Source: Planctomycetota bacterium
Lineage (GTDB): Bacteria > Planctomycetota > Phycisphaerae > WQYP01
Assembly: GCA_021851715.1 (NCBI GenBank)
Contig: JAJZCR010000002.1
Coordinates: forward strand, 529 to 64,528
Reading direction: 5' to 3'
Length of the DNA stretch: 64,000 nucleotides
Under the pieces are notes generated by a model. The model worked only from the letters and a program-made list of their open reading frames with translations. It did no database searches and was not told the origin of the DNA. Each line of letters opens with the position of its first letter. Within the stretch, counting starts at the first letter, position 1. Positions 4,016 through 62,215 of this stretch are shown piece by piece. The translations under genes were made by a program, and so were the position numbers.

Positions 4016-4042
4016 TTGTTACTCGAGCCGTAGGAATCCAGG

Positions 4043-26380: not shown

Positions 26381-28020
26381 TTGTGGATTGAAACTCGCTG
26401 CGCCGCAATGCGTGCGATCCGATTATCTTTCGTTGCAAGAAAGCCTACTCGCAGATCCACCCGCAAGGTTTCCCAGAACTCAAAACGCGACGACCGGAAG
26501 AATTGGGCCTCCATCCGGTGCCGTAGATTTGAGGCTTCGCCAACATAAAGGTGCCGGCCAGTTCGGTCTTCCAGCCAGTACAGTCCCGGATCCGTCGGGA
26601 CGCGGCCAATTTCAAGATCAAAGGGATTTTCGTCCATTCTTGGCCTGGGGGGCAGGCGGTACGGCGACAAGAGTCGGTGCGTCTTCTGCGATTCTTTTCG
26701 GAATCGCAGGGCCATCCACCGAATCCACAGGCAGGGTAAATTCTCCGGGATCATCCCCTGTACGTATTCATCAAGCTCCTTTGCCCGGGCTGGATCACAG
26801 AGGATGGTGTCGAGCGACTGCTTTTTTTCAAATCTGGCCAGCGCAATTTCAAACGCAAACTTGTAATACTCATATTTTTGGCTGAGGGCCGCAGGCACCA
26901 CCGTTGGCTTGGATTCCGGCAACCCCGACTTGCGTTTGCGGATGTTGAGTAAACGCCGATTCCAATCCGCAATATCGCCCGGCAAGCCAAGCCGTCGGCA
27001 AACCACCCCGAATTCCACGTTCATCTGTGGGTCCACGACCACCCGATCAGCCGAAAAGCCATCCCTAACGGTAAAGAACGCCTCCAGCAAGCCGCGCTCG
27101 ATTTCGGACCGGCCTTGTCGTTGCGGCACCGATGCCGCCGCCTTGATGCGTTGGCCATTGATACGCATAGTTCCATTGGCTGTGGAGGGGGCGGAGGTGG
27201 CGGGAACATCGGATCCCAGCAGTGGCTCGCCGACGTTGGTTTGATCCAATCGTGTCTGAATTCTCTTGGCATAATCGGGGGACAACTCAAAGCCGATAAA
27301 TTGCCGACCAAGTTTTTTGGCCACCGCCAGCGTCGATCCGCTGCCGCCAAACGGGTCCAGCACCGTTTCGCCTTCATTGGAGGAGGCCCTGATAATGCGC
27401 CCCAGCAACTGTTCCGGCATCTGGCAGCCGTGCCAGCCGGCACGCTCCTTAAATGTTCCGCACACGCGTGGGAAATACCATATATCTTCATGCGGCTGGA
27501 AACAGTCCGGGATATCTTGCGGACGCAGGATCCAGGTATCGTCGGGCAGGCGACCATCCGGATTCCCCCGGCTGTCGCCGTAAACCAGGGTTCTAGCTGA
27601 AGGTACGCGGATGGCGGGTATATTGAAGGTGAAGCGCTTCGGATCTTTTACGAAATGAAACAGATGGGTATGGCTGCGGGCAAACTTGGTTTTGCACTGC
27701 ACGCCAAAGGTGTAGTACCAAAGCACCCAACTGCGGCACTTCAGGCCCAGTTCGCGCTGAAAAATCATCTTTAATTCCGCTGCGAAATCGTCGCCGATGG
27801 CCAGCCAAAAAGTCCCGTCCGCCTTGAGCGCCCGCACCACGCCGGCCCCCCAACGGCGGGTCCAATCCAGATAATCTTCGGCAGCACGCTTGTCTTCATA
27901 AACATCGTACTGATAACCGATGTTAAAAGGTGGATCCGCGAAGACCAGGTCAATACTGCCTTCGGGAACAGCCCCCAGGCCTTCAATACAGTCCTGTTGA
28001 TAAATCTGGTTTAATTTCAC
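26320..28020 (-). CDS. Beta-class N6/N4 DNA methyltransferase (PF01555-like) fused to a ~270-aa C-terminal module ending in a degenerate GIY-YIG domain
   Basis: The N-terminal half reads QQDCIEGL...DLVFADPPFNIGYQYD (motif IV) then VLDPFGGSGSTLAVA (motif I). The C-terminal half reads GLYWLEDRTGRHLYVGEASNLRHRM ... AAQRVSIHKWKPLGN. Confidence 0.85.
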   Translation of the reverse strand: MKLNQIYQQDCIEGLGAVPEGSIDLVFADPPFNIGYQYDVYEDKRAAEDYLDWTRRWGAGVVRALKADGTFWLAIGDDFAAELKMIFQRELGLKCRSWVLWYYTFGVQCKTKFARSHTHLFHFVKDPKRFTFNIPAIRVPSARTLVYGDSRGNPDGRLPDDTWILRPQDIPDCFQPHEDIWYFPRVCGTFKERAGWHGCQMPEQLLGRIIRASSNEGETVLDPFGGSGSTLAVAKKLGRQFIGFELSPDYAKRIQTRLDQTNVGEPLLGSDVPATSAPSTANGTMRINGQRIKAAASVPQRQGRSEIERGLLEAFFTVRDGFSADRVVVDPQMNVEFGVVCRRLGLPGDIADWNRRLLNIRKRKSGLPESKPTVVPAALSQKYEYYKFAFEIALARFEKKQSLDTILCDPARAKELDEYVQGMIPENLPCLWIRWMALRFRKESQKTHRLLSPYRLPPRPRMDENPFDLEIGRVPTDPGLYWLEDRTGRHLYVGEASNLRHRMEAQFFRSSRFEFWETLRVDLRVGFLATKDNRIARIAAQRVSIHKWKPLGNYLNFKWPTPGAAA

Positions 28021-28140
28021 CGGAACCTCGTCAAAATGGTACCTGGTCTTGCCAGCCTAAGTCAGATGCTTGAAATACCGCATATTGACCGAACATTACA
28101 CTAACAACACTAGATAGAGTACCCAAGGGCTTCGCCGTTT

Positions 28141-29619
28141 TCAAGCGGCCTGGGCCTGGTGCAATCGCGCGTTAAGGTTGGCAATGGCGTTACCCAGAGC
28201 CTCATGATGGGGTCCGTCTGCGGCTACCCAACGCAGCAGCCAGCCGGTGGTCAAGCGGGTTTCCACCCGTTGATTGGCGGCGACCGCTGTGGAATGATTG
28301 CGGTCGCCTAAAATCCGGCCGATCTCCGGAAAGCTCAGATGGGAATGCTGGCGCATCAGATAAATGGCAATGGCCCTGGCACCGGCCACCAACTGGCTGC
28401 GCCGATTGCCCCGCAGATCGGCGGCGGCTAACCCGAAATAGCCCGCCACGGTTTCAATGATGTGCTCCGCTGATATAACCTTCGCCGCTCCGGCGCGGCA
28501 GCGCACCTGTTCGGCGATGACGGTGGCGGTTCCTCCGACGGTCTCCCCGGCTTCCACAGCCACCTCCAGCCCCGTGAGCACCTGCAGCAAGAGGCCTTCG
28601 AGTTCGCGGACGCTGGCGGCGGGGCTTTGGGCTACGTGCATGAGAATCGCATCGCTGACGGAACGCCGCAGCCGCAGGGCGTGGCGCCGGACGATTTCCA
28701 GGCGCGTGGGCAGGTCGGGTGGATCAATACGTGCCACCATGCCGCTTACGAACCGGCTCTGCAGGGCGTCCATGATCGAGGCAATCTGCCCGGGAGCGCA
28801 GTCGGATGCCAGCACAATGCGCCGACCCGCACCATCCACCTGGTTGAAAGTGTGCAGGAATTCCTCCTGGGTGGCCTGCTTGCGCGTGAAGAAATGAATA
28901 TCATCAATCACCAGCAGGTCACTCTGGCGAAGCCGCCGACGAAACTGGGAGGTTTTGTTTTGGCGGATGGCCTCGACAAATTCATTGGTGAATTCTTCGC
29001 CGGTAAGGTAAAGCCAGCGCTTCTGCGGAAACTTCTGGCCAAAGCGCCGGCATATTCCCTGCAAGAGATGGGTTTTGCCCAGGCCGCAGCGCCCATGAAT
29101 AAAAAGCGGATTACAGGTGTTTTCAGTTGACTCAGCGGCTTGCACCGCCGCCCGGAAAGCCATCTGGTTGGACGGACCGGCCACAAACTCTTCCAGCAGA
29201 TACTTGGGATTCAGTCTGCTCACGCCGACCGGCGGGCTGGCGGCACTCGGCGGATGAGCCTGCGGCGGAGGCACAACTGCATCAACGGCCGGCTCAGATC
29301 GCGGCGTGCCGGCCGGAGTCGCCACTTCCACCGTCACCTGCTCACCCAGAACCACCGCGGCGCTGTGCCGCAATTCCAGCATCAATTTGCCGCGAATCCA
29401 CTGTGCTGCAAATGAGCTGGTGGCAGCCACGGTCAGCTTCTGGCCGTCCATATACCAGCGGCACTTTCCGGCAAACCATTGCTGATAGCGGGGCTCACCC
29501 AGGCGTTGGGCCAGTTCATCCTCAATTTTAATCTGCACAGTTTTTTCAAGTTCCAATTCCTTCATTTCCGGCGCAGCGGGCAACATCAACAGACTCCTTT
29601 CCGGGCACCATTTCCCCAT
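28141..29619 (-). CDS. dnaA: Chromosomal replication initiator protein DnaA
   Basis: Walker A is GRCGLGKTHLLQ and Walker B is LLVIDDIHF. The C-terminal DNA-binding helix region reads FPEIGRILGDRNHSTAV. The true start may be M19 (nt 29565, MKELELEK...). Confidence 0.95.
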   Translation of the reverse strand: MGKWCPERSLLMLPAAPEMKELELEKTVQIKIEDELAQRLGEPRYQQWFAGKCRWYMDGQKLTVAATSSFAAQWIRGKLMLELRHSAAVVLGEQVTVEVATPAGTPRSEPAVDAVVPPPQAHPPSAASPPVGVSRLNPKYLLEEFVAGPSNQMAFRAAVQAAESTENTCNPLFIHGRCGLGKTHLLQGICRRFGQKFPQKRWLYLTGEEFTNEFVEAIRQNKTSQFRRRLRQSDLLVIDDIHFFTRKQATQEEFLHTFNQVDGAGRRIVLASDCAPGQIASIMDALQSRFVSGMVARIDPPDLPTRLEIVRRHALRLRRSVSDAILMHVAQSPAASVRELEGLLLQVLTGLEVAVEAGETVGGTATVIAEQVRCRAGAAKVISAEHIIETVAGYFGLAAADLRGNRRSQLVAGARAIAIYLMRQHSHLSFPEIGRILGDRNHSTAVAANQRVETRLTTGWLLRWVAADGPHHEALGNAIANLNARLHQAQAA

Positions 29620-51053: not shown

Positions 51054-51554
51054 TTACCGCGACCAGATTGGGCGAACCTCTGGACGTTTCACCGGGTGTG
51101 GCCGCGGCGATCTCTGGCCAACCAATTGGTCGGGCACGCCGGTGCCGCTATTGGCCCCGGTGCTGGCCATGGAAATGGGCGAACCGTTGATATCGTCGGA
51201 GAACGTGTATTGGTAAAGGGCATTGCCGAGGTTATCCAGGCCGGTAACGGTAACCACCGGGTAGGCGGTATCCGCCGCCTGCACCGGGCTGCCGGTGGAA
51301 CTCAAGGTCAGGCCGGTTTGGCTGGCCACCAGCCGATCACGCCAGTCGTAATCCATCAAGGTAACGCGTGCGGTGCCGACGGCGTTGGTACCGGCGTTGC
51401 CATCCGGATAGGCGATGGTTTCGGTGAGGTTGCCATCACCAACCCCACCACTGTCATAAATGTTGGATGAGACTTCGGTCATATTATTGCCCGTGCCGGG
51501 GTTGCTGCCGTCAAAGTAAGCAGAGTCGCAAGGGCTATATTGCTCGTGCCTCAT
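51054..51554 (-). pseudogene. YD/RHS-repeat protein fragment (orphan piece), shares the 250-bp repeat with 57225-57722
   Basis: NIYDSGGVGDGNLTETIAYPDGNAGTNAVGTARVTLMDYDWRDRLVASQ and LYQYTFSDDINGSP are YD-repeat-like. It has no long N-terminal core and ends in low-complexity read-through. Confidence 0.4.
51272..51521. repeat. 250-bp direct repeat, copy 1 (partner at 57512-57761)
   Basis: By manual alignment, 244 of 250 nt are identical to the partner copy, at an offset of 6240 bp. It encodes the shared YD-repeat segment. Confidence 0.9.
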
Positions 51555-51569
51555 CTCGGTCTTTCATCC

Positions 51570-52115
51570 TTACGGGCTGCGCGCATGCGAGATGAGTTCA
51601 TGCACCTTGGCGGCAACTTTTTTTACCAGCGGATCCGAGAGGCCGCTGACGCGTGCGGATTCCTTCCCTTTGGGCATAAAGGGAACATCGAGACCACCTG
51701 GAAGCCACCATTGGTGATTATATCGCTGCATAAAAACCAAAAACATCCCTCCGGGGTGAATAGGCCCAACCGCGACAGAGAAGAGCCGGGTCCGGTCTAT
51801 ATAAAGCCGCATTTTGGTGGATACTGTTTTCTCCGTGGCCAACACCGCCAATACTCGCACTTGGGCAAGGTAAAAGCCCTGCCCTCCACCCGGGCTTGGT
51901 GCCCTTGTCGTACGCCATCGTAAAACCCTTACAACCGCAAAGGCATGCCACTGCCAAAATTGCCGGGTTGTTCCATTAAACACGGGCCACGCGGCCTGGC
52001 TTGAATCCGACCAGCGCAATGAAAGCCAGAGACCGACCACCACGGTCAATATCAAAATCTGCCACCGCGCGAATCGCCGTTGTTCGCATTTCATGACCAC
52101 GCCTCCGCCTACCAA
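51570..52115 (-). CDS. Hypothetical protein with an N-terminal membrane anchor (181 aa)
   Basis: The TM segment is WQILILTVVVGLWLSL. It is the last gene of the array transcript, 12 nt after the preceding stop. The probable start is ATG 52094. I recognise no motif. Confidence 0.45.
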   Translation of the reverse strand: MVGGGVVMKCEQRRFARWQILILTVVVGLWLSLRWSDSSQAAWPVFNGTTRQFWQWHAFAVVRVLRWRTTRAPSPGGGQGFYLAQVRVLAVLATEKTVSTKMRLYIDRTRLFSVAVGPIHPGGMFLVFMQRYNHQWWLPGGLDVPFMPKGKESARVSGLSDPLVKKVAAKVHELISHARSP

Positions 52116-52127
52116 CTACCCAAGGAG

Positions 52128-52394
52128 CTACCACCCAATGGCGATGCCATCCATTGAGCCACGCCCCATGACCGAGCCGAAACGTTCAAGAAAAACTGGC
52201 TGCGGGCCGGCAAAGTCGCTATTAACGCCGATGATATCGCCATTGGCATCATGCCCCAGCGCAATGCTAAATGAATACAGCACCGCCAGACCATTCCACG
52301 CTCCGGTTGGCAGCGGAGCCGATTCGCCGATGCCCTGCCAGAGCAGGTCGCTGCTTGTGTCATAGATTTTCAGGTTGAAGTTATTGCCGTTCAT
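52128..52394 (-). CDS. Small ~90-aa 'NFNLKIYD' domain protein, variant copy with a divergent C-terminus
   Basis: The N-terminal part is MNGNNFNLKIYDTSSDLLWQGIGESAPLPTGAWNGLAV...GHDANGDIIGVNSDFAGP. It then diverges (QPVFLERFGSVMGRGSMDGIAIGW*). Confidence 0.55.
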   Translation of the reverse strand: MNGNNFNLKIYDTSSDLLWQGIGESAPLPTGAWNGLAVLYSFSIALGHDANGDIIGVNSDFAGPQPVFLERFGSVMGRGSMDGIAIGW

Positions 52395-52421
52395 ACACGC
52401 GATTCTACCAGCATCATTGCT

Positions 52422-52955
52422 TCATAGTTCCCGCAGCCAACGGCGGAGGCGGCTCGTGAACTTTTCGTTCGGCCATAGCGGAGGCACGAGCAGCCATATC
52501 CCAACGCAGATGACAAGGTGCGCGAGGACAAACATCTGTGTACCGACCAGAGGGACGCGGTGGGGGAGCACGTGCGGCATCGCGAAAACCACCCAAGGTG
52601 TTAACATACCAGCGCATGTTCCAAGTGCCCATGCGACGACCCACCGACGCCGTACACGCCGCCGTCCCACTGGAAACACAGCAGCGGCCACGAGCCCGCC
52701 GTAATACCCCGCAGCAAGGAGCCGCCACCACAAACTGACGCTGTTCGTTAGATCCAACCCCGTAAGAGGTGCCAATAGCAAGACGAACACGCGTATAGTA
52801 CCATGCAATGGAGGATTATAGGCGTAATTTGTCCACCGGTCGAATGGAAGCGATAAGGAGAGCAACCAAAGGCCCCAACCAGCGGCGTACAGTGTCCAGC
52901 CAATGGCGGGGCTAAGCCTGAAATATCTGCGGTCTGCCGGTTCCGTCTCCATCAT
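52422..52955 (-). CDS. 5-TM membrane protein, 'RRWLREL' family, copy 4
   Basis: It begins MMETEPADRRY, has about 5 hydrophobic helices, and ends LVPPLWPNEKFTSRLRRWLREL*. Its ATG overlaps the upstream stop (ATGA). Confidence 0.65.
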   Translation of the reverse strand: MMETEPADRRYFRLSPAIGWTLYAAGWGLWLLSLSLPFDRWTNYAYNPPLHGTIRVFVLLLAPLTGLDLTNSVSLWWRLLAAGYYGGLVAAAVFPVGRRRVRRRWVVAWALGTCAGMLTPWVVFAMPHVLPHRVPLVGTQMFVLAHLVICVGIWLLVPPLWPNEKFTSRLRRWLREL

Positions 52956-53467
52956 TGCACCGCCACCGTTCCGGAATCATAGCCGGAATCGCTGGTTATG
53001 CCCGATTGAAAAAAGTTCTGCAAAATGTTCAGCGGCCCGGCAAAATCACCGTTGACTCCAATGATGTCTCCATTGAGATCGTGGCCCAGCGCAATGCTAA
53101 ATGAATACGGCACCGCCAAACCATTCCACGCTCCGGTTGGCAGCGGAGCCAATTCGCCGATGCCTTGCCAAAGCAGATCACTATTGGTGTCATAAATTTT
53201 CAGGTTAAATGGGTCGTTGTTGGCATTAGTCGCATCGGTAACCTGGAATGCGCCATCCAGCGTGAGGTTGATGGCTCCGGTAGGATTGTCGGAAGTGACC
53301 ACCGGCGTTGGCGGCGTGTACACCGGCAGATTCACCAAGGTATACGTGGAGTCTATCGTCTGCGTGCCCTGCAGGCTGTAGCCGACCGCGCCGACGCCAG
53401 TGTCCGAAGAATCACCCAGCGGGCTGGTGACCGTCTGGGCCAAGCCGCGCCCCACGGCCAGTTCCCA
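52952..53467 (-). pseudogene. 5'-truncated copy (last ~171 codons) of the 340-aa array-leading gene
   Basis: ...GRGLAQTVTSPLGDSSDTGVGAVGYSL...NDPFNLKIYDTNSDLLWQGIGELAPLPTGAWNGLAVPYSF...DSGYDSGTVAVQ* is homologous to residues ~170-340 of 55716-56738. Homology starts exactly at the stop of the upstream membrane gene. The 328-aa track ORF upstream of that point is out-of-frame overlap. Confidence 0.5.
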
Positions 53468-53469
53468 TC

Positions 53470-53991
53470 TCAAAGCTCGCGAAGCCAACGTTTTACCCTC
53501 GGCCACAGTTTCTCCACCGATCGCGCTGGCGACCGGCCCCACAGGACAAGCCAGCTCCCGACACAAATTAACGTGGCGCTCGCGCAGAACAAAAGAAATC
53601 CGGGGGAGAACCGAATCACGGTGAGATAGTACCACGGTGAGAGCGCGCCGAGCGGAAGCATGCGAGGCCAGATTGCGGGTGGTCCCGACCGGCAGAGCAG
53701 CGCGGCCGCGCTCGCGGCCAACCCGGCAATGGTAAGCACCGCAACCAGCGGCATGGGCAGGTAGGCCGCCGGCATGTGCTGGGCGGAGCCAAACGACGCG
53801 TCTGCGGCGAGACCGTCCAAGGTAAGCAGCACGATCCAGGCGCCCACCGGGAACCTCAGCGTTCCTGGGGCGAACCCCGGGCCACGCATCTGCAGCGATA
53901 CGCAAAGTAACACCCATCCGATGCCGAAAACGCACCACTTGTTTATCCCTGACCGAAAGCCCCCACCGCCACGTGGTATCTGCATCCCCAT
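53470..53991 (-). CDS. Multi-TM membrane protein, divergent 'RRWLREL' family member, copy 3
   Basis: It is hydrophobic throughout and ends KLWPRVKRWLREL*. Its ATG abuts the upstream TAA (TAAATG). Confidence 0.6.
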   Translation of the reverse strand: MGMQIPRGGGGFRSGINKWCVFGIGWVLLCVSLQMRGPGFAPGTLRFPVGAWIVLLTLDGLAADASFGSAQHMPAAYLPMPLVAVLTIAGLAASAAALLCRSGPPAIWPRMLPLGALSPWYYLTVIRFSPGFLLFCASATLICVGSWLVLWGRSPARSVEKLWPRVKRWLREL

Positions 53992-54264
53992 TTAATCCAC
54001 CCCCACCGTGCCGGAATCATAGCCGGAATCGCTGGTTATGCCCGATTGAAAAAAGTTCTGCAATATGTTCAACGGCCCGGCAAAATCGCCGTTGACACCA
54101 ATGATATCACCGTTGGCATCATGGCCCAACGCAATATTAAAGGAATACGGCACGGCCAAGCCGTTCCAAACTCCCGCCGGCAGCGGAGCCATCTCGCCGA
54201 TGCCTTGCCAAAGCAGGTCGCTGCTTGTGTCATAGATTTTCAGGTTGAAGTTATTGCCGTTCAT
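53992..54264 (-). CDS. Small 90-aa 'NFNLKIYD' domain protein
   Basis: The full product is MNGNNFNLKIYDTSSDLLWQGIGEMAPLPAGVWNGLAVPYSFNIALGHDANGDIIGVNGDFAGPLNILQNFFQSGITSDSGYDSGTVGVD*. Confidence 0.6.
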   Translation of the reverse strand: MNGNNFNLKIYDTSSDLLWQGIGEMAPLPAGVWNGLAVPYSFNIALGHDANGDIIGVNGDFAGPLNILQNFFQSGITSDSGYDSGTVGVD

Positions 54265-54291
54265 ACACGCGATTCTACCAGCATCATTGCT

Positions 54292-54861
54292 TCATAGTTC
54301 CCGCAGCCAACGCCTAAGGCGATGCGTGAATTTTTCTTTCGGCCATAACGGAGGCACGAGGAGCCATATCCCAACGCAGATAACAAGGTGCGCGAGCGCA
54401 TAAACCGGCATGCCCAACCCCGTGAATCCGGGATCGGTGACCATTTTTAATAATATGATAATTGAAGGTATAAAAATGCCGGCGCAGATTCCCAGCGTCC
54501 AAGCAATAACCCACCTGTGTTGAACATGTCGCCGCGCCGCTGGGAAAATGATGGTGGAAAGCATCGCGGCGAAGTACCCTATCCCAACGAGCCGCACCCA
54601 AAACTCGACACTGACCGTGGGAATGAACGCCCCGAGAGTTGCTAGGACCACGAATGCCCCGGGAATGGTGCCTGGCCCCGGCATAGACGGATCACTGAAG
54701 GCGGGTAGGTGACAGAACGGTAGTGGCAACGCCGCGACCCACATAATCCAACCTCCCACGAGTAAAACCATTCCGATCGCGGGCCTGCGGCAAGGACGTA
54801 CGATTGAGGGGGGCCGACCAAGAATGGCCGACACGCGGCCAGTTGGCTTCGTCTCCATCAT
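54292..54861 (-). CDS. 5-TM membrane protein, 'RRWLREL' family, copy 2
   Basis: It begins MMETKPTGRV and ends LVPPLWPKEKFTHRLRRWLREL*. There is an ATGA overlap with the upstream small gene. Confidence 0.65.
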   Translation of the reverse strand: MMETKPTGRVSAILGRPPSIVRPCRRPAIGMVLLVGGWIMWVAALPLPFCHLPAFSDPSMPGPGTIPGAFVVLATLGAFIPTVSVEFWVRLVGIGYFAAMLSTIIFPAARRHVQHRWVIAWTLGICAGIFIPSIIILLKMVTDPGFTGLGMPVYALAHLVICVGIWLLVPPLWPKEKFTHRLRRWLREL

Positions 54862-55130
54862 TGCACCCCCACCGTGCCGGAATCATAGCCGGAATCGCTC
54901 GTTACCCCAGATTGGAAGAAATTCTGCAAGATGTTCAGCGGTCCGGCAAAATCCCCGTTGACTCCAATGATGTCGCCATTGAGATCATGGCCCAGCGAGA
55001 TGTTGAACGAGTACGGTACCGCCAGTCCGTTCCAAACACCGGCTGGCAACGGGGCCAGCTCGCCCTTTCCCTGCCAAAGCAAATCTCTACTGGCATTGTG
55101 GTATTTTAGATTGAAAGAGTTGCCATTCAT
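54858..55130 (-). CDS. Small 90-aa 'NFNLKIYD' domain protein (variant NSFNLKYH)
   Basis: The start is set at ATG 55130 (MNGNSFNLKYHNASRDLLWQGKGELAPLPAGVWNGLAVPYSF...DSGYDSGTVGVQ*). The track ORF 54858-55313 extends upstream into the neighbouring membrane gene. Confidence 0.6.
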   Translation of the reverse strand: MNGNSFNLKYHNASRDLLWQGKGELAPLPAGVWNGLAVPYSFNISLGHDLNGDIIGVNGDFAGPLNILQNFFQSGVTSDSGYDSGTVGVQ

Positions 55131-55158
55131 ACGAATTATTCCATCAACATTATAACCC

Positions 55159-55719
55159 TCAAAGCTCACGCAGCCAACGCCTAAGGCGATGCGTGAATTT
55201 TTCTTTCGGCCATAGCGGAGGCACGAGCAGCCATACTCCCGCACAAAGAAAAAGGTTCGCGAGCGCAACGACCGGTGTGCCCACCGCCGCAAAGCCAATA
55301 TGGAAGACAACATACATTAGGATAATGATCCAAGGTATTAAAACGCCGGCGCAGGTTCCTAGCGCCCACGTGACGGACCCCCGGTGCTGCATATGCCGCG
55401 CCGCCGCTGGAAAGAATGCGACTGACAGCATTCCGGCGACGTACCCAACCGGTATAAGCCGCCACCACATTTCCATGCTTACTGCAGGATTGAACGCAGT
55501 AAAAACGGCCCATACGATTACGTACGCGGTAGGCAGAGGCATCGGTACCTTTAATATCGCAAAATGAAAAAGTGGTAGCGGCAGCGATACTATCCAAAGG
55601 CACCACCCAACCGCATAAAAGATTTTTCCGTATGTCCGGCGGCGGAGCCGCGACAGGGGCACCCGAACGTGCGTGTCCCACCAAAGATGTCTGCGGATAC
55701 GCGGTTCGGGCTCCATCAC
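55159..55719 (-). CDS. 5-TM membrane protein, 'RRWLREL' family, copy 1
   Basis: It begins MMEPEPRIRRH and ends LVPPLWPKEKFTHRLRRWLREL*. There is an ATGA overlap with the 340-aa gene's stop. Confidence 0.65.
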   Translation of the reverse strand: MMEPEPRIRRHLWWDTHVRVPLSRLRRRTYGKIFYAVGWCLWIVSLPLPLFHFAILKVPMPLPTAYVIVWAVFTAFNPAVSMEMWWRLIPVGYVAGMLSVAFFPAAARHMQHRGSVTWALGTCAGVLIPWIIILMYVVFHIGFAAVGTPVVALANLFLCAGVWLLVPPLWPKEKFTHRLRRWLREL

Positions 55720-56738
55720 TGCACCCCCACCGTTCCGGAATCATAGCCGCTGTCGCTGGTTACGCCGGATTCGAGAAAGTTCTGCAGGATGTTCAGCGGC
55801 CCGGCAAAATCACCGTTGACTCCAATGATGTCTCCATTGAGATCATGGCCCAACGCAATATTAAAGGAATACGGCACCGCCAGACCATTCCAAGCTCCGG
55901 TTGGCAGCGGAGCCAATTCGCCGATGCCTTGCCAAAGCAGGTCGCTATTGGTGTCATAAATTTTCAGGTTGAACGGATTGTCGTTGGCGTTGCTCGCATC
56001 GGTAACTTGGAATGCGCCATTGAGCGTAACGTTGATGGCACCGGTAGGGTTGTCGGAAGTAACCACTGGTGTTGGCGGCGTGTACGCTGGCAGATTCACC
56101 TGGGTGTATGGCGAGACCAACGCGGTCGAACCCGTGAGGCTGTAACCCACCGCACCTACGCCTGTATCGGGTGAGCTGCCCAGAGGTCCGCTCAGGTTCT
56201 GCCCGAGACCGCGCCCCAGTCGCGGTACAGATATTTCGAACGGCACGTACCCGCCGCTGCCGGCAAGGGCCCAGGCCGTGCTGCTAACTGAAACTCCGGT
56301 ATCGCCATACTTGACTGTGGCGTCATCGAGCGTAGCGACATAACCGCCGGAGCTGCCATCGCTGGGCGGTGAAAGCAGGGAGATCGAAACTCCCGATGCC
56401 AAATCACTTTCCTTGACCATGCCGGTTAGAACGGGAGTCTGGATGCCGGTTTGACCTGGCGTGACGGGAACGTTCCAGGTTGGGGCGTTGTAGTCCGTGC
56501 CATCCAAGCGTACGCCGACAATCGCATCTTGGTTCAGGCCGGCACCGGAAACCTCGGTGCTGGCCCCCGCATTGGTGCCGCCGTTGTAGGCGTTGTGGTC
56601 GTTGGGTGGTGGAAGGTAGACGCCCGAATGGGGACTCCAACTGAGATTTCTTGTTACCGCCCAGCGGGGTTTCCAAGCCGGCGGATAACCCTGAAAACCA
56701 GGAGGGGCTACAACAGCGGCACGACCACGTCTCACCAT
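55716..56738 (-). CDS. 340-aa protein: unassigned N-terminal ~250 aa plus the C-terminal 'NFNLKIYD' domain (full-length member of the array family)
   Basis: The C-terminal 90 aa match the small ORFs (NDNPFNLKIYDTNSDLLWQGIGELAPLPTGAWNGLAVPYSFNIALGHDLNGDIIGVNGDFAGPLNILQNFLESGVTSDSGYDSGTVGVQ*). A GGGAGGTG SD lies before the ATG, which overlaps the upstream stop. There is no obvious signal peptide. Confidence 0.65.
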   Translation of the reverse strand: MVRRGRAAVVAPPGFQGYPPAWKPRWAVTRNLSWSPHSGVYLPPPNDHNAYNGGTNAGASTEVSGAGLNQDAIVGVRLDGTDYNAPTWNVPVTPGQTGIQTPVLTGMVKESDLASGVSISLLSPPSDGSSGGYVATLDDATVKYGDTGVSVSSTAWALAGSGGYVPFEISVPRLGRGLGQNLSGPLGSSPDTGVGAVGYSLTGSTALVSPYTQVNLPAYTPPTPVVTSDNPTGAINVTLNGAFQVTDASNANDNPFNLKIYDTNSDLLWQGIGELAPLPTGAWNGLAVPYSFNIALGHDLNGDIIGVNGDFAGPLNILQNFLESGVTSDSGYDSGTVGVQ

Positions 56739-57277
56739 TCACCTCCCGATCCGGGAAACCGGTGGCGTGATTGCCAAGGCTGGGACGGAGCGATCCACGT
56801 TGCGGCTGCGGCCAACAGGATGCCCGCAGCCAAGAGGTTTGCCCCGGGATAGTGTTTCGCGTCGGCGTAGCCAGCGGCGAACCAGATTGTCAGTGCGGAA
56901 ATCGGCCCGGAACATGCCCGCGCGGCCCAAAGGATACGGCGTTTGCCCAATAGCGCCCCCGCCACCATCAAAAGGACCCCAACCCAGAAAGGCAAAAACA
57001 GGAACGGAAGCGCGAGGGCTGACAACGCCACAAAGAGCCACGTTGGAAAACGCTCGCCGTGCAGGTTGATCCCAAAAGTGGTCGAAAAGGACAGGGCCGC
57101 CACCGCCAGGGACAAAAAAACGAGAACACGGGCGATCCAAACCCGCAGCCTCGCCGTGACACCGCCCCGACTTTGGCCTGAATCACGACGCATCGACGGG
57201 AGGCTTCCGACCCCCTGTTTGGGCCTACGATCCTGGTACATAGCCATCTCCTGAATCCAAAGTCCCCAGCGATACAT
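56732..57277 (-). CDS. Multi-TM membrane protein following the YD-tail gene (immunity-like position)
   Basis: It has about 4-5 hydrophobic helices (VLVFLSLAVAALSF, WLFVALSALALPFLFLPFWVGVLLMVAGALL ...). It overlaps the 3' end of 57225-57722. The start is uncertain (ATG 57277, 57247 or 57241). Confidence 0.5.
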   Translation of the reverse strand: MYRWGLWIQEMAMYQDRRPKQGVGSLPSMRRDSGQSRGGVTARLRVWIARVLVFLSLAVAALSFSTTFGINLHGERFPTWLFVALSALALPFLFLPFWVGVLLMVAGALLGKRRILWAARACSGPISALTIWFAAGYADAKHYPGANLLAAGILLAAAATWIAPSQPWQSRHRFPGSGGEW

Positions 57278-57722
57278 GATTAAGCTCTTGGAAAAGGCCG
57301 TCGTTCCACGGCGCTGCCCCCAGTGGACCGGTAACGGTGTAATTGTTAAGAGTCAGGGTCTCCGTGTCCGTATACGACAGGGCCAGCCCCACCCAAAAGA
57401 CGGCTACATTCGACGGAGTGATGTCATTGTACAGCACTTGGGCCAACAACGTGTCCGAGCCAAGTAGGCCGCCATCCGCATACAAGCTGACGGTAGCGTA
57501 GGAGCCGCTTCCCGCCGCCTGCACCGGGCTGCCGGTGGAACTCAAGGTCAGGCCGGTTTGGCTGGCCACCAGCCGATCACGCCAGTCGTAATTCATTAAG
57601 GTAACACGCGCCGTGCCGACGGCGTTGGTACCGGCGTTGCCATCCGGATAGGCGATGGTTTCGGTGAGGTTGCCATCGCCAACCCCACCACTGTCATAAA
57701 TGTTGGATGAGACTTCGGTCAT
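57225..57722 (-). CDS. Orphan YD-repeat tail with a distinct ~95-aa C-terminal domain
   Basis: The first 70 aa are near-identical to 51054-51554 (MTEVSSNIYDSGGVGDGNLTETIAYPDGN...YDWRDRLVASQ). An in-frame TGA lies 22 codons upstream of the ATG. The C-terminal part is unique (…NNYTVTGPLGAAPWNDGLFQELNHVSLGTLDSGDGYVPGS*). Confidence 0.45.
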   Translation of the reverse strand: MTEVSSNIYDSGGVGDGNLTETIAYPDGNAGTNAVGTARVTLMNYDWRDRLVASQTGLTLSSTGSPVQAAGSGSYATVSLYADGGLLGSDTLLAQVLYNDITPSNVAVFWVGLALSYTDTETLTLNNYTVTGPLGAAPWNDGLFQELNHVSLGTLDSGDGYVPGS

Positions 57723-57761
57723 ATTATTGCCCGTGCCGGGGTTGCTGCCGTCAAAGTAAGC
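57512..57761. repeat. 250-bp direct repeat, copy 2 (partner at 51272-51521)
   Basis: 244 of 250 nt are identical to copy 1. Confidence 0.9.
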
Positions 57762-57785: not shown

Positions 57786-58691
57786 TCACCCGGGCCAACG
57801 AACGAAGCTGGCGGTTCCGGCCGAAATCGCGTTGCGAAGGTAGCGCACCATGGCTGCGTCGATTTCGACTGCTGGCGGCCGACGGCCCTTCGGAACCACG
57901 TTGCGCAGGCAATAGAACACCCAGAGTGCCCGCTGCTCGCTGAGCACGATCCCCGCACCCACATTGGCCGGTCGCTCATGGTGTAACAAGCCCGTTGCGC
58001 ACAGCCCCTTCGCCGGTAACGCTGGCCTGGTTGAAGCTGCGCCAGCGAGCATCTGGACCAGCGAGCGTAAACCCATTTTCGACCCGTGTCGGGCGACCTC
58101 CCACGTACCAAGCGCAAAGGTAAAATAATTTTTTTGCGGACCCAGCAAGAGCCCCCAAGCCCTTTGCATCGCCCTCGCCCCGTGCTGCGTTTCACGATAA
58201 TGCCTCAGCGTGGCGTAAATCCGAAGGGCCTTGACGAACTGGGGCACCTTTTTGCCAGGCAGGGGTGCCGTCCACGGAATGCCGAAGGGGGAAACGGCAA
58301 GGCCGGGTTGGTGGTAAAAAAAGACTTTTTTGTCCCCTGGAACACGCAGTTCTGGATTCTGGGCTGGCCGTTTAAGCCTGGCCACGACGCACACAAATGT
58401 CGTGCCCCGGGCCATCAACGGAAGAAAGTTAGGTGCGGTGGCGCTGGTACCGCGGGACCAATAGCTCTCAAGGGTTAGGAGCGTACCGGCCTTCAGTCCC
58501 AGGCGGTAGCCACCGAGCAGCCTGATTTGGTAACGGACGATGGGGAAGAGGTTTGTCTTAACAATCTCCCGGCCCAAAACCTGCCCGACGATCACCTGCC
58601 CGCGCGCAAGCGCGGGCCCTCGCGGACCGAGGAAAAAAAGAACGGCCGTCGCGAGGGCTAGCCGGGCTGAGTGCGACTTTATGGCCTTCAT
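57786..58691 (-). CDS. Secreted hypothetical protein, paralogue family Y (copy 3)
   Basis: The start is set at ATG 58691 (MKAIKSHSARLALATAVLFFLGPRGPALARG, signal-like). It shares PLM..GT.F, KNYFTFALG and RALWVFYCLRNVVP blocks with 58881-60233 and 61439-62215. Confidence 0.55.
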   Translation of the reverse strand: MKAIKSHSARLALATAVLFFLGPRGPALARGQVIVGQVLGREIVKTNLFPIVRYQIRLLGGYRLGLKAGTLLTLESYWSRGTSATAPNFLPLMARGTTFVCVVARLKRPAQNPELRVPGDKKVFFYHQPGLAVSPFGIPWTAPLPGKKVPQFVKALRIYATLRHYRETQHGARAMQRAWGLLLGPQKNYFTFALGTWEVARHGSKMGLRSLVQMLAGAASTRPALPAKGLCATGLLHHERPANVGAGIVLSEQRALWVFYCLRNVVPKGRRPPAVEIDAAMVRYLRNAISAGTASFVRWPG

Positions 58692-58880
58692 GGCTGCGTG
58701 CCTCCGTAGTTGGGACGGGCTTCCGGCCGAGGGGGACAGCCGAAACCGCTTAAGAACCGGGAGGGATGGTCCCCTTGTTGGTCCAAGTTTCAGATTCGAG
58801 CGCACCGTTGGCCGTGGTGCCGGTAATCGGATTGGTATTGAATCCCGATGGCCATCGGGAGGCGTGGACGGTTTCGACCC

Positions 58881-60233
58881 TCATTTACCGCCCCCGGCCT
58901 TTTGCCTGTCTACGGATTGGCGGCCATGGCCAGCAAATTTTGCCATAAACGCGGATATCGACGCTTTCCGGCTGATTGGGACATACGCGCCCTTTGGCGC
59001 TGTACCCGGCCCTGGCGGAAAAATGCCAATTCCGCGGTCCCTGTAAGTCCAAGTGTTCGCGACGAACGGTTTAAACCGCGTGCTGGCCCGATTCGCATGC
59101 ATCCAAGGGCTTGGAAGCGTCAAAACCTCTGCATTGCCGCGCGGCCTGGCCCGTCGGTATAGATAATCCTGCATCAGGCCAGCCACACACCAGCCCGTCA
59201 GTCGACACCAGGGTACGGGGTACACTGCCGATGCGTAGAGCAGCCATGCCGCCCGGCGTTGTGACATGCGAAGGCGGCGCCACGCACGGTATTTCACGGC
59301 CGGGCAGCCCGGTTGGCGGATTGTGACAGCCTTGGTGGCGTAGAAATACCGCTTAATCAACAGTGTAATTTCCTCTCGGTTGGCACCGCCACAATACGAG
59401 GAAACCCCTAACGCCCACAGGTAATAATTTTTGCTCGCCATAAGCGCGGCGGCCTGCTTAGCCGGCAGCACGTTGGGGAATGGATAGAAATGAAACCACG
59501 ACCTCCGAGCTTCTCCCCACGCTGCGAGAGCCTGCTTTACCTTATTGATATTTGCCATGCGCACGACCGATGGTACCGGCACGCCAATGGGCAACACACT
59601 CTGGCCGGCGAAGGTGAACAGTTTTCTGCCCTTAGCCTCGTTGTGGAGCGGCCTGCGCACGGTGGTTGAGGCTTTGGCGACCGGAATAATGCTAGCAACG
59701 AAGGTTGCGCCGGGTCGCATGATCAAGGCCGGGGGAGCGGTCCCGGGCGGCCCGAATGTATAGCCGCCCACGTTGTTGCCCCCAAGGCCTCCAGATAGGA
59801 CCACCGTTTGGCCAGCTTTGGCCAACTTGGAGTCTGAGTAAATCACCCGGACCACATAGGCGACTGCTATTCTCTTAAAGGGGTGCGGGCCAATCTTTGT
59901 GACACCGAAGCGCACCGTTAAAATCCTCGCCGAGGCAACCTTGGCGATTATATCGCCCGTGGCATCCGGCTTACCAAACCAGTAGTACCCGACCCAGGGA
60001 GCTTTGCCCGCGAGCCAGCCGTACGCGGGAACGACAGCGCCGCCGCCGACACGCACAGGGGGTCCGTCCGTAGCGCGGCCAGCACCACCCGGCAGTGGTG
60101 GCTGCGATGCGGCAGGCCCGCCGACCGCGCGAGCCAAGCTGGCCAGCCCCGGACTACCAAGGAAAATCAACACCGCGCCAACTAAGGCCAGTGGTGCGTT
60201 GACTGTGGGTGGAATCCAAAAGATGTTTCGCAT
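58881..60233 (-). CDS. Secreted hypothetical protein, paralogue family Y (copy 2, longest at 450 aa)
   Basis: The signal-like N-terminus is MRNIFWIPPTVNAPLALVGAVLIFLGSPGLASLARA. The family block is ASKNYYLWALGVSSYC. A GGGGA SD lies before the ATG. Confidence 0.55.
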   Translation of the reverse strand: MRNIFWIPPTVNAPLALVGAVLIFLGSPGLASLARAVGGPAASQPPLPGGAGRATDGPPVRVGGGAVVPAYGWLAGKAPWVGYYWFGKPDATGDIIAKVASARILTVRFGVTKIGPHPFKRIAVAYVVRVIYSDSKLAKAGQTVVLSGGLGGNNVGGYTFGPPGTAPPALIMRPGATFVASIIPVAKASTTVRRPLHNEAKGRKLFTFAGQSVLPIGVPVPSVVRMANINKVKQALAAWGEARRSWFHFYPFPNVLPAKQAAALMASKNYYLWALGVSSYCGGANREEITLLIKRYFYATKAVTIRQPGCPAVKYRAWRRLRMSQRRAAWLLYASAVYPVPWCRLTGWCVAGLMQDYLYRRARPRGNAEVLTLPSPWMHANRASTRFKPFVANTWTYRDRGIGIFPPGPGTAPKGAYVPISRKASISAFMAKFAGHGRQSVDRQKAGGGK

Positions 60234-60476: not shown

Positions 60477-61412
60477 TTAAGAGTAATCAATCGTCCTGCC
60501 GTTCGGACCTGTCCCGATAGCCGAAATAGATAATGCGTGCTCGGGATACACCATGCTGGCAAGCCTCGAACCGTTGGACGGATCCGTATAGCTGTATTGT
60601 ACCACCGGCGTGGTGCCGATGGCAACTGCGATCCCGATCAAAATGCTCCGCTGGATGGTATCGGGACTGGCTTCGCCAGCCGCGGTTTTATATTGCTGCG
60701 TGAGTTGGCCGCCGTTGAGCGAGGCCGTGCAGCGGCACAAAGGCAGCCCGCCTTCATCGCCGCGAAATCCCGTCCCGCCGATAGGGCGGGTGTGCGCCGC
60801 AGCGCCGGGGTTATAGATATTTTTCACCTGGTTGACAATGGTGGTCCCGCCGGTATCCGCATAGCTGGTTAAAAGGTACGCCAAGCCTTGATTGTTGTAC
60901 GCGGTGTCAATGCGCAAAACGCTGCCATCGACATTCGTACCCAGCGTGGTGACGGTATCACTGATCTGCCGGCCCAACGCATCAAACATGTAATTATGCA
61001 CATTGCCGTTGGCGTCAATGGTTTGATATTGCCGGCCATCGATATCGTAAGCATAAGTGGTGGCATAGTAATTGCCATTGGGATCCAAGCCTGAAAGCTG
61101 GTTGGTGATTGGCGTGCCGGAATAAGGATCATTGGGCGTGGTGGCCAGATAAGTGTTGTTGTTGATGATGGCATAACTGTCGGATTCGGTCATCTGGCCA
61201 GCGGTGTTATACAATGTGCGGGAAAGGCTCTGAATAACAAATTGCGGATTGGAAACTGTGCCGGTGCCGATGAGGTTAAACACATTGGCCGGGCCGGTGC
61301 CGGCCCCATGGCCCTGGATGAAATCATCGGGGATCATCACCTGGTAATTTTGCACCTGCAATGTGCCGGAAAAGCTGAAGGTAATCAAAGCGGTGGAACT
61401 CGCGTCCACCAA
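60477..61412 (-). pseudogene. YD/RHS-repeat protein fragment (5'-truncated)
   Basis: YD repeats include YAYDIDGRQYQTIDANGNVHNYMFDALGRQISD, RIDTAYNNQGLAYLLTSY and VVQYSYTDPSNGSRLASMVYPE. The ORF opens immediately after the stop of the upstream gene and has no N-terminal core. Confidence 0.55.
60761..60809. repeat. Conserved-flank / variable-hairpin element, copy 1
   Basis: The sequence is cgcgaaatcccgt-[cccgcc gatag ggcggg]-tgtgcgccgcagcgccggg. The flanks are identical to copy 2, and the centre forms a different hairpin. Confidence 0.4.
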
Positions 61413-61438: not shown

Positions 61439-62215
61439 TCACGGCTTGTAACCCGGTTCGTGCGCTTTGGATAGCCTCGCAAGGTAGGAGGTCAGATAAG
61501 ACAGCACCATGCCGCGCGAGGGACGGACTGCCGGGGGCGCAACGCGGCGCACGCAGTGGAGTATCCAGAACGCCCGCCGTGGCGATAAGTTTCTAAACAG
61601 GCCATCCAAAAGCGTATACACGTCTTTATGAGTACAGTCTATTGCAATAACCCGGGTTCCCAACGCCCAAAGGTAGAAGTTACGGCTGTCCCTGAGCTTA
61701 AAAGCCTGCGATTTTACGAGCTTGCCCATTTTACGTAGTCGACCATATTCCCGCAGCGCCGCCGCGAGGCCCGCCACGTCGCGTTTGGCCACCGGTGACG
61801 GTAATCCCACGCCGAGGGGAAACCACTGCTCGGTCTTGACGTAGCGATAGCTGCGGCCGCCTCTCGCCGGCATGACCGCCATCAAAAAATAGGTACCGTT
61901 CGACATCAGGGGTATTTGGGTACCGCCAGGGGTCCGGCTGGTCCGCCGCAGCCCCACAACGGTGATTACCACCCCCGGCTGCGGCCTCCCCCGCTGCTGG
62001 CCAACCACCCGAACACGATACGTATACCGCGTTGTAAACCGGTTTACGGCCTTTTTGCCCACCGCCGCCACTTGGCCCAAGATCACAAGCCCGCCGCGCG
62101 CCCGTGATGGCAAAAGCCCCGATCCCAGAACGGTCCGTGATCCGCTGAGAAGAGCGGTTAGCAGCAGCGCGGCCGCAACGGGCGAGACCCACCAAACGCC
62201 AACTAAACGTACCAC
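61439..62215 (-). CDS. Secreted hypothetical protein, paralogue family Y (copy 1)
   Basis: The GTG start overlaps the stop region of 62203-63135. The signal-like N-terminus is VRLVGVWWVSPVAAALLLTALLSG. Family blocks are DSRNFYLWALGTRV and RRAFWILHCVRRVAP. Confidence 0.55.
   Translation of the reverse strand: MVRLVGVWWVSPVAAALLLTALLSGSRTVLGSGLLPSRARGGLVILGQVAAVGKKAVNRFTTRYTYRVRVVGQQRGRPQPGVVITVVGLRRTSRTPGGTQIPLMSNGTYFLMAVMPARGGRSYRYVKTEQWFPLGVGLPSPVAKRDVAGLAAALREYGRLRKMGKLVKSQAFKLRDSRNFYLWALGTRVIAIDCTHKDVYTLLDGLFRNLSPRRAFWILHCVRRVAPPAVRPSRGMVLSYLTSYLARLSKAHEPGYKP

Follow-up and report, generated by a model that had tools for sequence, protein, structure and literature searches.

Truncated Ig-like tails alternating with small membrane-protein genes in a planctomycete: a candidate orphan-cassette array of a polymorphic lipase-effector system

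In the present study, we analysed a 64,000-nt stretch of a Planctomycetota bacterium (contig JAJZCR010000002.1, positions 529 to 64,528; hereafter the window), in which genes for a small tail domain (the CT domain) alternate with genes for a small transmembrane (TM) protein. Window coordinates are used throughout, the array lies on the minus strand, and L0nn and P0nn are our analysis labels for related loci and related proteins, respectively. An uninterrupted run of 11 open reading frames (ORFs), in which the two families alternated, was found at 52128-57722. An initial annotation of this DNA had confined the array to 52128-56738; all the minus-strand ORFs that it had listed were present, but the upstream limit actually lay at about 57722, with one more unit at the start. 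The alternation of domain genes and membrane genes, which it had also described, was confirmed with profile hidden Markov models (HMMs) made from homologues and run against the window units. Matches well past chance were obtained in every unit, with E values of 1e-36 to 7e-45 for the CT HMM on the type-A domain copies and of 2e-22 to 4e-53 for the TM-family HMM on the membrane genes. In addition, a repeat finder detected the domain segment five times, with 66-89% DNA identity to the reference copy and starts 830, 1040, 866, and 858 nt apart, and the 3' segment of the membrane gene three times.

Read along the minus strand, the array begins with a YD::tail fusion (57225..57722; 165 aa), in which about 70 aa of YD/Rhs repeat precede a divergent type-B CT domain that matched the CT HMM with E=3e-24. 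Its tail aligned with the type-B tails of P0011 and of the L004/L005 proteins, and its YD part was similar to residues ~180-250 of a 1430-aa Rhs protein encoded on the NCBI metagenome-assembled genome (MAG) contig L001. The membrane partner TM0 (56732..57277; 181 aa as listed) is divergent and was assigned by HMM (E=2e-22) and alignment; its start is uncertain, and the overlap with the upstream ORF spans 16-53 nt. The ATG of the following 340-aa orphan (55716..56738) overlaps the TM0 stop. This protein consists of three sandwich domains (mid1, mid2, and a type-A1 CT domain) and carries neither a lipase domain nor a signal peptide. Its homologues are the lipase proteins P0024-P0046 and the L024 main gene, in which it corresponds to the C-terminal 300 aa. 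It represents the 5'-truncated tail of such a lipase-type giant and begins directly past the lipase-domain end. TM1 (55159..55719; 186 aa; HMM E=1e-46) overlaps the 340-aa gene by GTGA and is followed, after a 28-nt spacer, by CT1 (54858..55130; 90 aa; HMM E=3e-41), which is the last beta-sandwich alone. TM2 (54292..54861; 189 aa; ATGA overlap) is 96% identical, at a synonymous divergence (dS) of 0.07, to the 188-aa TM protein P0016 (L024 5788-6354) from another strain. CT2 (53992..54264; 90 aa; HMM match), a second CT-only ORF, is preceded by a 27-nt spacer, and its stop is abutted by the divergent TM3 (53470..53991; 173 aa; HMM E=1e-31). The next unit (52952..53467; ~171 aa; HMM match) is a 5'-truncated copy with part of mid2 and the CT domain. 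It has no ATG, and direct reading of the sequence revealed an in-frame TTG overlapping the TM3 stop (TTGA), which is a possible coupled start. TM4 (52422..52955; 177 aa; ATGA overlap; HMM E=3e-52) and the terminal CT-only ORF, CT4 (52128..52394; 88 aa), complete the run. Homology in CT4 was lost about 190 nt in (alignment column ~190); this is the 3' edge of the array, and CT4 probably lacks the last two strands of the sandwich.

The junctions followed a uniform pattern that had already been noted and was read again from the sequence: domain genes run into membrane genes by a 4-nt ATGA/GTGA overlap or by direct abutment, and membrane genes are separated from the small ORFs by 27, 27, and 28 nt. 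Likewise, the truncated copy at 52952-53467 does join the preceding membrane gene at its stop, starting 2 nt past it. Fusion of TM proteins to tails by stop-codon read-through was considered and rejected, since the spacers (27/28 nt in the window and 22/28 nt in L024/L027) are not consistently in frame. Promoter and terminator scans gave no enrichment over shuffled sequence. The best sigma-70-like match of the region (TTGGCT-17-TATAAT; 55149-55177, minus strand) spans the conserved TM1 tail and the pre-CT1 spacer; the count of such sites did not exceed that of shuffled sequence, and the -10 element of this one was not kept in the other spacers. The whole array is bracketed by 259-nt direct repeats of YD-repeat sequence (repeat finder family D3), which are 96% identical at a spacing of 6240 nt. 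The left copy lies at 57503..57761, and the right copy (51263..51521) lies inside the Rhs fragment ORF 51054-51554, which runs on as native Rhs. The identical array was present in three independent assemblies.

The initial annotation had recognised neither protein family, and no model for either was present in Pfam or NCBIfam: searches of these two libraries and of PDB sequences with the tail, the 340-aa protein, and the TM proteins did not rise above noise. A word-indexed search of 5.8 billion proteins returned only 15 relatives of the 340-aa protein and seven of the membrane protein, every one of them from MAGs and metagenomes of Planctomycetota, and two JGI metagenome scans, with the TM family and the orphan family, returned no relatives. 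The AlphaFold2 model of the 340-aa protein, run with a 40-sequence alignment, was all-beta with three tandem sandwiches, at a mean predicted local distance difference test score (pLDDT) of 81.5, with most residues from about 100 onward scoring above 90. The third and last of these immunoglobulin-like (Ig-like) beta-sandwiches is the 90-aa domain. Foldseek searches with this model retrieved only generic tandem Ig-like modules (the Bap BSP domain, transglutaminase and factor XIII C-terminal barrels, adhesins, and macroglobulin MG domains) with E values of ~1e-4 and low TM-scores, the latter because of inter-domain geometry. Such generic resemblance does not support the claim of a specific family such as PLAT, C2, or a C-terminal domain (CTD) of the type IX secretion system (T9SS).

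At the conserved positions of the tail, hydrophobic or structural residues (L, W, G, A, Y) predominated, with no catalytic-type motif, and the extreme C-terminal ~45 residues were its best-conserved part. The 90-aa domain had been proposed as a toxin. In full-length relatives, it lies downstream of two further sandwiches and a lipase-type hydrolase, and because of its Ig-like fold and the lack of a catalytic-type motif, it is a binding-type module, not a toxin. A calcium loop of the DxNxDxxxxxxD pattern had also been suggested and was dropped because the Asp/Asn positions vary across subtypes, with N, S, Q, V, or a gap in their place. The remark that the domain is conserved rather than variable was true within this array but not between loci, where the last ~250 aa of the relatives fell into several subtypes (A1-A4, B, and C).

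The partners from the window and eight other loci aligned as one divergent family, in which the last helix has a Gly and a Trp that are conserved. The earlier count of five TM segments agreed with the five hydrophobic segments seen, but the AlphaFold2 model (pLDDT 66) contained four confident helices (25-44, 84-112, 115-142, and 151-168) and a C-terminal amphipathic helix. A tally of Lys/Arg residues gave six in the N-tail, three in the 107-115 loop, and six in the C-tail; by the positive-inside rule, this favours a predicted topology with four TM helices, cytoplasmic N and C termini, and a periplasmic or re-entrant segment of ~40 residues (47-87). Foldseek found no structural match for the TM model (best E=0.44), and the PDB held no sequence relative. 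In the window subtype, the last helix and tail (…GIWLLVPPLWPKEKFTHRLRRWLREL) were nearly invariant, and the N-tail and two predicted outer loops were most variable. Two ORFs elsewhere contained two tandem TM-family units each, namely a 386-aa ORF in L006 (12735-13895), on which the TM HMM gave two matches, and a 311-aa ORF in L029 (5078-6013), recognised by eye.

The origin of the tails became apparent from longer relatives. A 610-aa protein of L005 carries the window-type mid region and tail behind an alpha/beta-hydrolase with an AHSYGG nucleophile elbow, and a search with this protein led to relatives of 800-1000 aa. An exhaustive profile search then yielded 72 cluster representatives at E<=1e-30, many of them giants (1300-3648 aa) that end in the hydrolase-tail module. 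The module order in full-length relatives is a lipase-type alpha/beta-hydrolase followed by three Ig-like sandwiches. The best Pfam matches of the hydrolase were DUF7379, PGAP1, LCAT, and Lipase_2, with scores around the gathering score (above it for some proteins and below it for others); no paper found in the literature search mentioned DUF7379. The AHSYGG serine was invariant in the full-length relatives, and D422 and H445, downstream in order, were nearly so. The N-terminal parts of the giants contain fn3, Big, cadherin, PKD, invasin-D3, beta-propeller, and dockerin domains; a signal peptide is clearly visible in at least one of them (P0046), and their N-termini also show dockerin and Planc_extracel motifs. 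The large secreted carrier with repeats and a strain-variable C-terminus was thus found in relatives only, and the window has the tails alone. It had been asked whether the domain occurs at the C-termini of YD/RHS or other delivery proteins: it does occur at the ends of giant secreted proteins, but not in the canonical position of an Rhs payload.

Both families occurred together in every related Phycisphaerae-type locus examined, which answered the question of co-occurrence raised in the initial annotation, and the overlapping downstream gene was always present in these loci. In L024, from a related strain, a lipase-bearing main gene of at least 1650 aa ends in a type-A1 tail and is followed by TM (212 aa), tail (65 aa), TM (188 aa), tail (90 aa), TM (203 aa), tail (92 aa), TM (184 aa), and a truncated tail (201 aa). 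In L013, a main gene of at least 2759 aa (fn3, Big_9, cadherin, PKD, and DUF7379) is followed by a TM gene and orphan units; in L008, three near-full-length copies alternate with TM genes; L006, L005, and L004 hold more arrays, with tails of every length; and in L010, a distant soil member, two TM paralogues follow. Altogether, arrays of 5'-truncated 3' ends with partner genes were found in the window, L004, L005, L006, L008, L013, L022, L024, L027, L028, and L029. Their truncated tails measure 59-676 aa, and most begin at, or no more than ~35 nt past, the preceding TM stop. Intact 90-92-aa tail ORFs recurred in L024 and L027, and decaying fragments were also seen (a 57-aa copy with an internal deletion in L029, CT4 of the window, and remnants in L006 and L008). 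A different partner was found in the Pirellulaceae MAG locus L022 (8284-10747), where two paralogous N-anchored WD40 proteins, with an 85-aa tail orphan between them, are encoded downstream of the homologous giant lipase gene; this beta-propeller pair is a candidate for a different immunity family of the same effector family. In a Verrucomicrobia member, a signal-peptide protein follows.

In L006 (8883, 10001, 12532, and 13892), L013 (11325), P0011, and P0026, a conserved leader peptide, 'M(M)VYANRSRFSVFSF(L/Q)G', begins at the TM stop or slightly past it (a few nt), and it precedes tails cut within the last sandwich, in mid2, at the mid1 start, and even before the whole lipase. A second leader, 'MVxxLLANPNLPLGSA', simply corresponds to where the lipase domain naturally ends. 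We considered whether the conserved 'MVYANRSRFSVFSF' leader was a frameshifted 'LLANPNLPLGSA' leader, and the DNA similarity was too weak to say. The shortest fragments, L024 5591-5788 (65 aa) and L027 1470-1646 (59 aa), consist of the last four sandwich strands only and, although from two samples, have a common derived leader (MPRLEFMLVDLAVPYFF / MLHFEFILADPAIPPSF).

The evolutionary rates of the two families were compared by the ratio of non-synonymous to synonymous divergence (dN/dS); among paralogues near synonymous saturation these values are approximate, and gene conversion, which is active here, can distort them. The tail copies of the window gave dN/dS of 0.03-0.13 at dS of 0.27-2.7 (CT1 against the other copies, 0.04-0.08), and tail-only ORFs with the same derived ATG and homologous spacers gave 0.04-0.18 across strains. 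Even the 65-aa and 59-aa half-domains compared at 0.09 (dS 1.8), and at 0.06 with the main-gene tail. The TM paralogues, at dS of ~1.1, gave dN of 0.33-0.45 and dN/dS of 0.3-0.4, so that their non-synonymous rate was ~4-5 times that of the neighbouring tails. Window-wise ratios of non-synonymous to synonymous polymorphism (pN/pS) on the TM genes exceeded 1 in no window, and positive selection was not demonstrated. Despite near-saturated synonymous divergence, five of five TM genes and four of five type-A tail copies were intact open frames.

Over 19 adjacent pairs, tails and TM proteins diverged in a correlated manner (Mantel r=0.36, p=2e-4). Discordant pairs were also found, in which tails of 82-92% identity stood beside TM proteins of 29-53%, or TM proteins of 84% beside tails of 55%, and the order of TM genes relative to tail type differed between the window and L024. 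These results indicated shuffling at conserved junctions. The recent duplication or conversion proposed earlier from a 100-nt identity was also real, although the identical stretch (52342-52442 and 54212-54312) measures 101 nt. It spans the TM 3' end, the spacer, and the CT start, and identity decays on both flanks, in the manner of a recent gene-conversion tract.

The location beside YD repeats, pointed out in the initial annotation, recurred in related loci, where the arrays often adjoin or fuse with Rhs/YD fragments. The window array lies inside a fragmented Rhs gene, pieces of which are an N-terminal one with an internal deletion (60477-61412; 311 aa) and the one at 51054-51554 (166 aa). 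On contig L001, the array is identical, and an intact 1430-aa Rhs gene (1054-5346) lies just upstream in the opposite orientation; the two differ through either an inversion or strain difference, or an assembly artefact. The L001 Rhs protein has a release motif (…SDPVGGVDPSG…) and a different, glycine-rich tip in its C-terminal ~280 aa (GLGG…GGGGALGLGAQG…GVGGGLGGG), which may resemble the glycine-zipper toxins that depolarise membranes, for example Tse5. In L029, a window-type unit occurs together with canonical Rhs orphan tips, and in L028/P0031, the sole such case, an Rhs-core end is followed by a partial lipase-tail module without the nucleophile serine. No PxxxxDPxGL-type motif precedes the tail in 57225-57722, P0014, P0009, or P0015, and in 57225-57722 and P0014 the tail is joined inside the YD repeats. 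The YD::tail fusions are therefore read as recombination products, not as Rhs payloads.

Based on this anatomy, we interpret the array as the orphan-cassette/poly-immunity tail of an undescribed Planctomycetota polymorphic lipase-effector system, with the TM proteins as its putative immunity proteins; read from sequence, this interpretation has a probability of roughly 0.55. It retains from the initial annotation the polymorphic toxin/immunity locus with orphan cassettes, but not the 90-aa domain as the toxin. According to the proposed mechanism, the 3' module of the giant gene would be swapped by recombination in conserved segments (where the lipase domain ends, at the CT 3' end together with the TM start, and in the TM tail), and the displaced 5'-truncated tails would accumulate downstream, each with its own TM gene. 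The TM protein would guard the cytoplasmic membrane of the producer, its variable loops binding the polymorphic sandwich tail of the lipase on the periplasmic side; it would face the periplasm, where a lipase would act. The TM genes would be the selected cargo and form an immunity battery against related effectors of neighbours. The window would have kept only displaced units, namely one three-sandwich tail, one shorter tail, three sandwich-only ORFs, and one YD::tail fusion.

Several results support this interpretation. The giant secreted carriers, the overlapping small gene, the truncated-tail arrays, and the Rhs toxin islands fit it, as does the unrelated WD40 partner in the same layout in Pirellulaceae L022. 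The subtypes of tail and TM protein are polymorphic with correlated divergence, and the TM genes are intact, fast-evolving but below neutrality, and most variable in the predicted loops. Other results weigh against it. The tail at the variable tip is non-catalytic and the upstream enzyme is conserved, which is the reverse of classic polymorphic toxins, and tail type and TM type are only loosely coupled. Tail fragments, including the 65-aa half-domains, are constrained (dN/dS 0.06-0.12 at dS of ~1), and such low values would not be expected of silent displaced cassettes. No obvious partner gene was found in the most distant members (Chthonomonadales L019/L021 and locus L012). The window encodes no secretion apparatus, and the HMM scan detected no lipase-type hydrolase domain in any window gene. 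Finally, the TM model is of moderate confidence (pLDDT 66) and has no solved match.

Because the tip is non-catalytic, the coupling loose, and the tails constrained, several rival explanations stay alive. The strong constraint on the 65-90-aa fragments, relative to partners that evolve 4-5 times faster, would be explained if the tail-fragment/TM pairs formed a new two-component module, in which a small soluble sandwich protein was the obligatory, translationally coupled partner of the TM protein. It might load, gate, or license the TM protein, and the effector's own tail would exploit or mimic the tail-TM interaction; we consider this unlikely. A related and slightly more doubtful proposal is that the small tail protein (90 aa, or even a 55-65-aa piece) and its overlapping TM protein are autonomous two-gene modules, such as a soluble, antitoxin-like protein that controls a membrane-active one, or a required co-factor of the immunity protein, with the tail of the giant effector as one more member of the interaction family. 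The strong purifying selection on tail-only ORFs (dN/dS 0.04-0.12 at dS 0.6-1.7), the similarly constrained 65-aa and 59-aa fragments with their common leader in two samples, the recurrence of intact 90-92-aa tail ORFs in L024 and L027, and ATGA/TTGA overlaps like those of type II toxin-antitoxin operons all fit such modules. They are harder to reconcile with the lack of signal peptides on tail ORFs, given that the variable TM loops are predicted to be periplasmic, and with the clearly decaying fragments (the 57-aa copy of L029, CT4, and the L006/L008 remnants). Moreover, half a beta-sandwich is unlikely to fold alone, and the low dN/dS could partly reflect the history of the full-length gene or gene conversion. 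In a further rival explanation, the array would be a non-functional relic, with pseudogene fragments left behind by recombination in a degraded Rhs region. The window indeed has no full-length effector, its Rhs gene is in fragments, its terminal unit is truncated, and one copy lacks an ATG; nevertheless, the open frames of all five TM genes and of four of the five type-A tails despite near-saturated synonymous divergence, dN/dS well below 1 in both families, the occurrence of the array in three independent assemblies, and related arrays in other strains make this explanation improbable.

The remaining explanations assign the tail and the TM protein a joint role other than immunity. In one, which we judge to be unlikely, the last sandwich would be a C-terminal sorting or docking domain and the TM protein would be needed for export or tethering of the giant, without any antagonism. 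This would suit a non-enzymatic Ig-like tail at the extreme C-terminus of giant adhesin-like proteins, the conservation of its last ~45 residues, and a partner gene that is translationally coupled by overlapping junctions; weak structural matches also included phage proteins annotated as 'gliding motility-associated C-terminal domain' and 'secretion system C-terminal sorting domain'. On the other hand, no sorting-domain match was obtained in NCBIfam or Pfam, the truncated-tail arrays, extra partner paralogues, and Rhs islands are unexpected for a housekeeping pair, partners of unrelated fold occupy the same position in Pirellulaceae, and TM type is not bound to tail type. The other would make the polymorphic tail a ligand and the polymorphic TM protein a receptor for a kin-identity signal, with no toxin neutralised, as in Proteus, where IdsD-IdsE mediates kin recognition through cognate binding. 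Both partners are polymorphic, the tail is a binding-type domain, the TM variable positions cluster in predicted loops, and several alleles occur per genome. Self/non-self recognition is nevertheless very improbable in view of the conserved, apparently active lipase attached in full-length forms, of tails that are near-identical within the array while the TM proteins differ by ~50%, of loose covariation, and of the lack of an Ids-type secretion system nearby.

The orphan-cassette/poly-immunity interpretation agrees with the polymorphic toxin framework of Zhang et al. (2012; PMC3482391), which includes lipase-like hydrolase toxins, Sec-dependent carriers with assorted repeats, and homogeneous or heterogeneous poly-immunity loci. 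The Planctomycetota system is like the Rhs, CdiA, and MafB toxins with orphan cassettes in its large secreted protein with a polymorphic 3' end, the adjacent small gene, the downstream arrays of truncated 3' ends, and the recombination-prone toxin islands. It differs from them in that the tip is a non-catalytic Ig-like domain behind a conserved enzyme, the carriers are fn3/cadherin/PKD/propeller giants instead of being built as an Rhs shell or FHA filament, the tail is not preceded by a release motif of the DPxGL type or of any other recognised kind, and the fragments are under purifying selection. Neither family matched a described Tox or Imm family in the Pfam, NCBIfam, and PDB searches. The Tle1-5 lipases of type VI secretion systems (T6SSs) are serine hydrolases that act on membranes from the periplasm, and their Tli immunity proteins are soluble periplasmic proteins or lipoproteins. 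The Planctomycetota system shares with Tle/Tli the serine-hydrolase lipase, an adjacent immunity gene with a (here predicted) periplasm-exposed product, and tandem immunity paralogues, but its hydrolase is of the AHSYGG, DUF7379/PGAP1-like type and its candidate immunity protein has 4-5 TM segments. No linkage to VgrG, PAAR, Hcp, or a T6SS cluster was found in the window, and no T6SS domains were found in any fetched locus scanned.

Another known system is that of TslA and TslM, 'reverse-arrangement' lipase toxins of the Staphylococcus aureus type VII secretion system (T7SS) with arrays of immunity genes (PMC13560087). The likeness lies in a lipase placed before a non-catalytic C-terminal domain and in tandem immunity paralogues. 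TslA and TslM reportedly have an N-terminal lipase and a C-terminal helical LXG-like T7SS targeting domain, and their immunity proteins are said to be lipoproteins; here, the C-terminus consists of three beta-sandwiches in a diderm planctomycete without T7SS context. Polytopic immunity proteins such as those of colicins (Cai/Cia), TspA-TsaI, and Tse5-Tsi5 have 110-190 aa and 3-5 TM segments, lie by a membrane-targeting toxin, and are sometimes arrayed; their toxins are membrane-inserting pore formers recognised within the bilayer. The TM family resembles them in small size, TM count, and place beside the toxin gene, but its partner is the soluble beta-sandwich tail of a lipase, and no match in sequence or fold was found. 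The T9SS type-B CTDs of Bacteroidota require an adjacent PorP/SprF-like protein, which is an outer-membrane beta-barrel, and form no truncated-cassette arrays. They have in common with the present system a giant surface protein with an Ig-like C-terminal domain and a downstream partner gene; the T9SS CTD models TIGR04183 and TIGR04131 gave no NCBIfam match for the 340-aa protein, P0026, P0036, or P0046.

Collectively, the kind of system is known, and the two families and their arrangement appear to be undescribed, with no Pfam or NCBIfam model other than DUF7379 and no relative in the PDB. Interbacterial antagonism has received very little study in Planctomycetota, and few roles have been assigned to their giant extracellular proteins. 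The present locus ties one class of giants, those ending in a lipase and three sandwiches, to a toxin-island style of evolution and defines two unannotated families, the triple-sandwich tail and the 4-5-TM partner. If the immunity interpretation is true, the variable, immunity-linked part would be the non-catalytic tail behind a conserved enzyme, as opposed to the usual rule that the variable tip is the toxin. The strong constraint on truncated tails is unexpected for orphan cassettes and raises the possibility that these 'orphans' have a function of their own.

Further ORFs were observed around the array. Between the Rhs fragments lie ORFs of 339, 450, and 258 aa (57786-58805, 58881-60233, and 61439-62215, minus strand) with signal-peptide-like N-termini. 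They have a '(K/R)NY(Y/F)…ALG' motif in common by eye, and the one pair compared was only weakly similar (BLASTP E of ~0.01). None of the three had a Pfam match and neither of the two scanned had an NCBIfam match; they may be another partner/immunity family of the Rhs island. Between the 3' edge of the array and the Rhs fragment lies a 174-181-aa ORF (51570-52115, minus strand) that has a single hydrophobic segment, at the N-terminus; it had no family match and was called as a gene in all three assemblies. The other neighbours in the window are housekeeping genes (DnaA, LigA, SHMT, GcvP, ferredoxin, YbeY, and CorC). Among them, dnaA (28141-29619) lies beside a DNA methylase gene (region 26320-29619), and the window may thus be close to the chromosomal replication origin.

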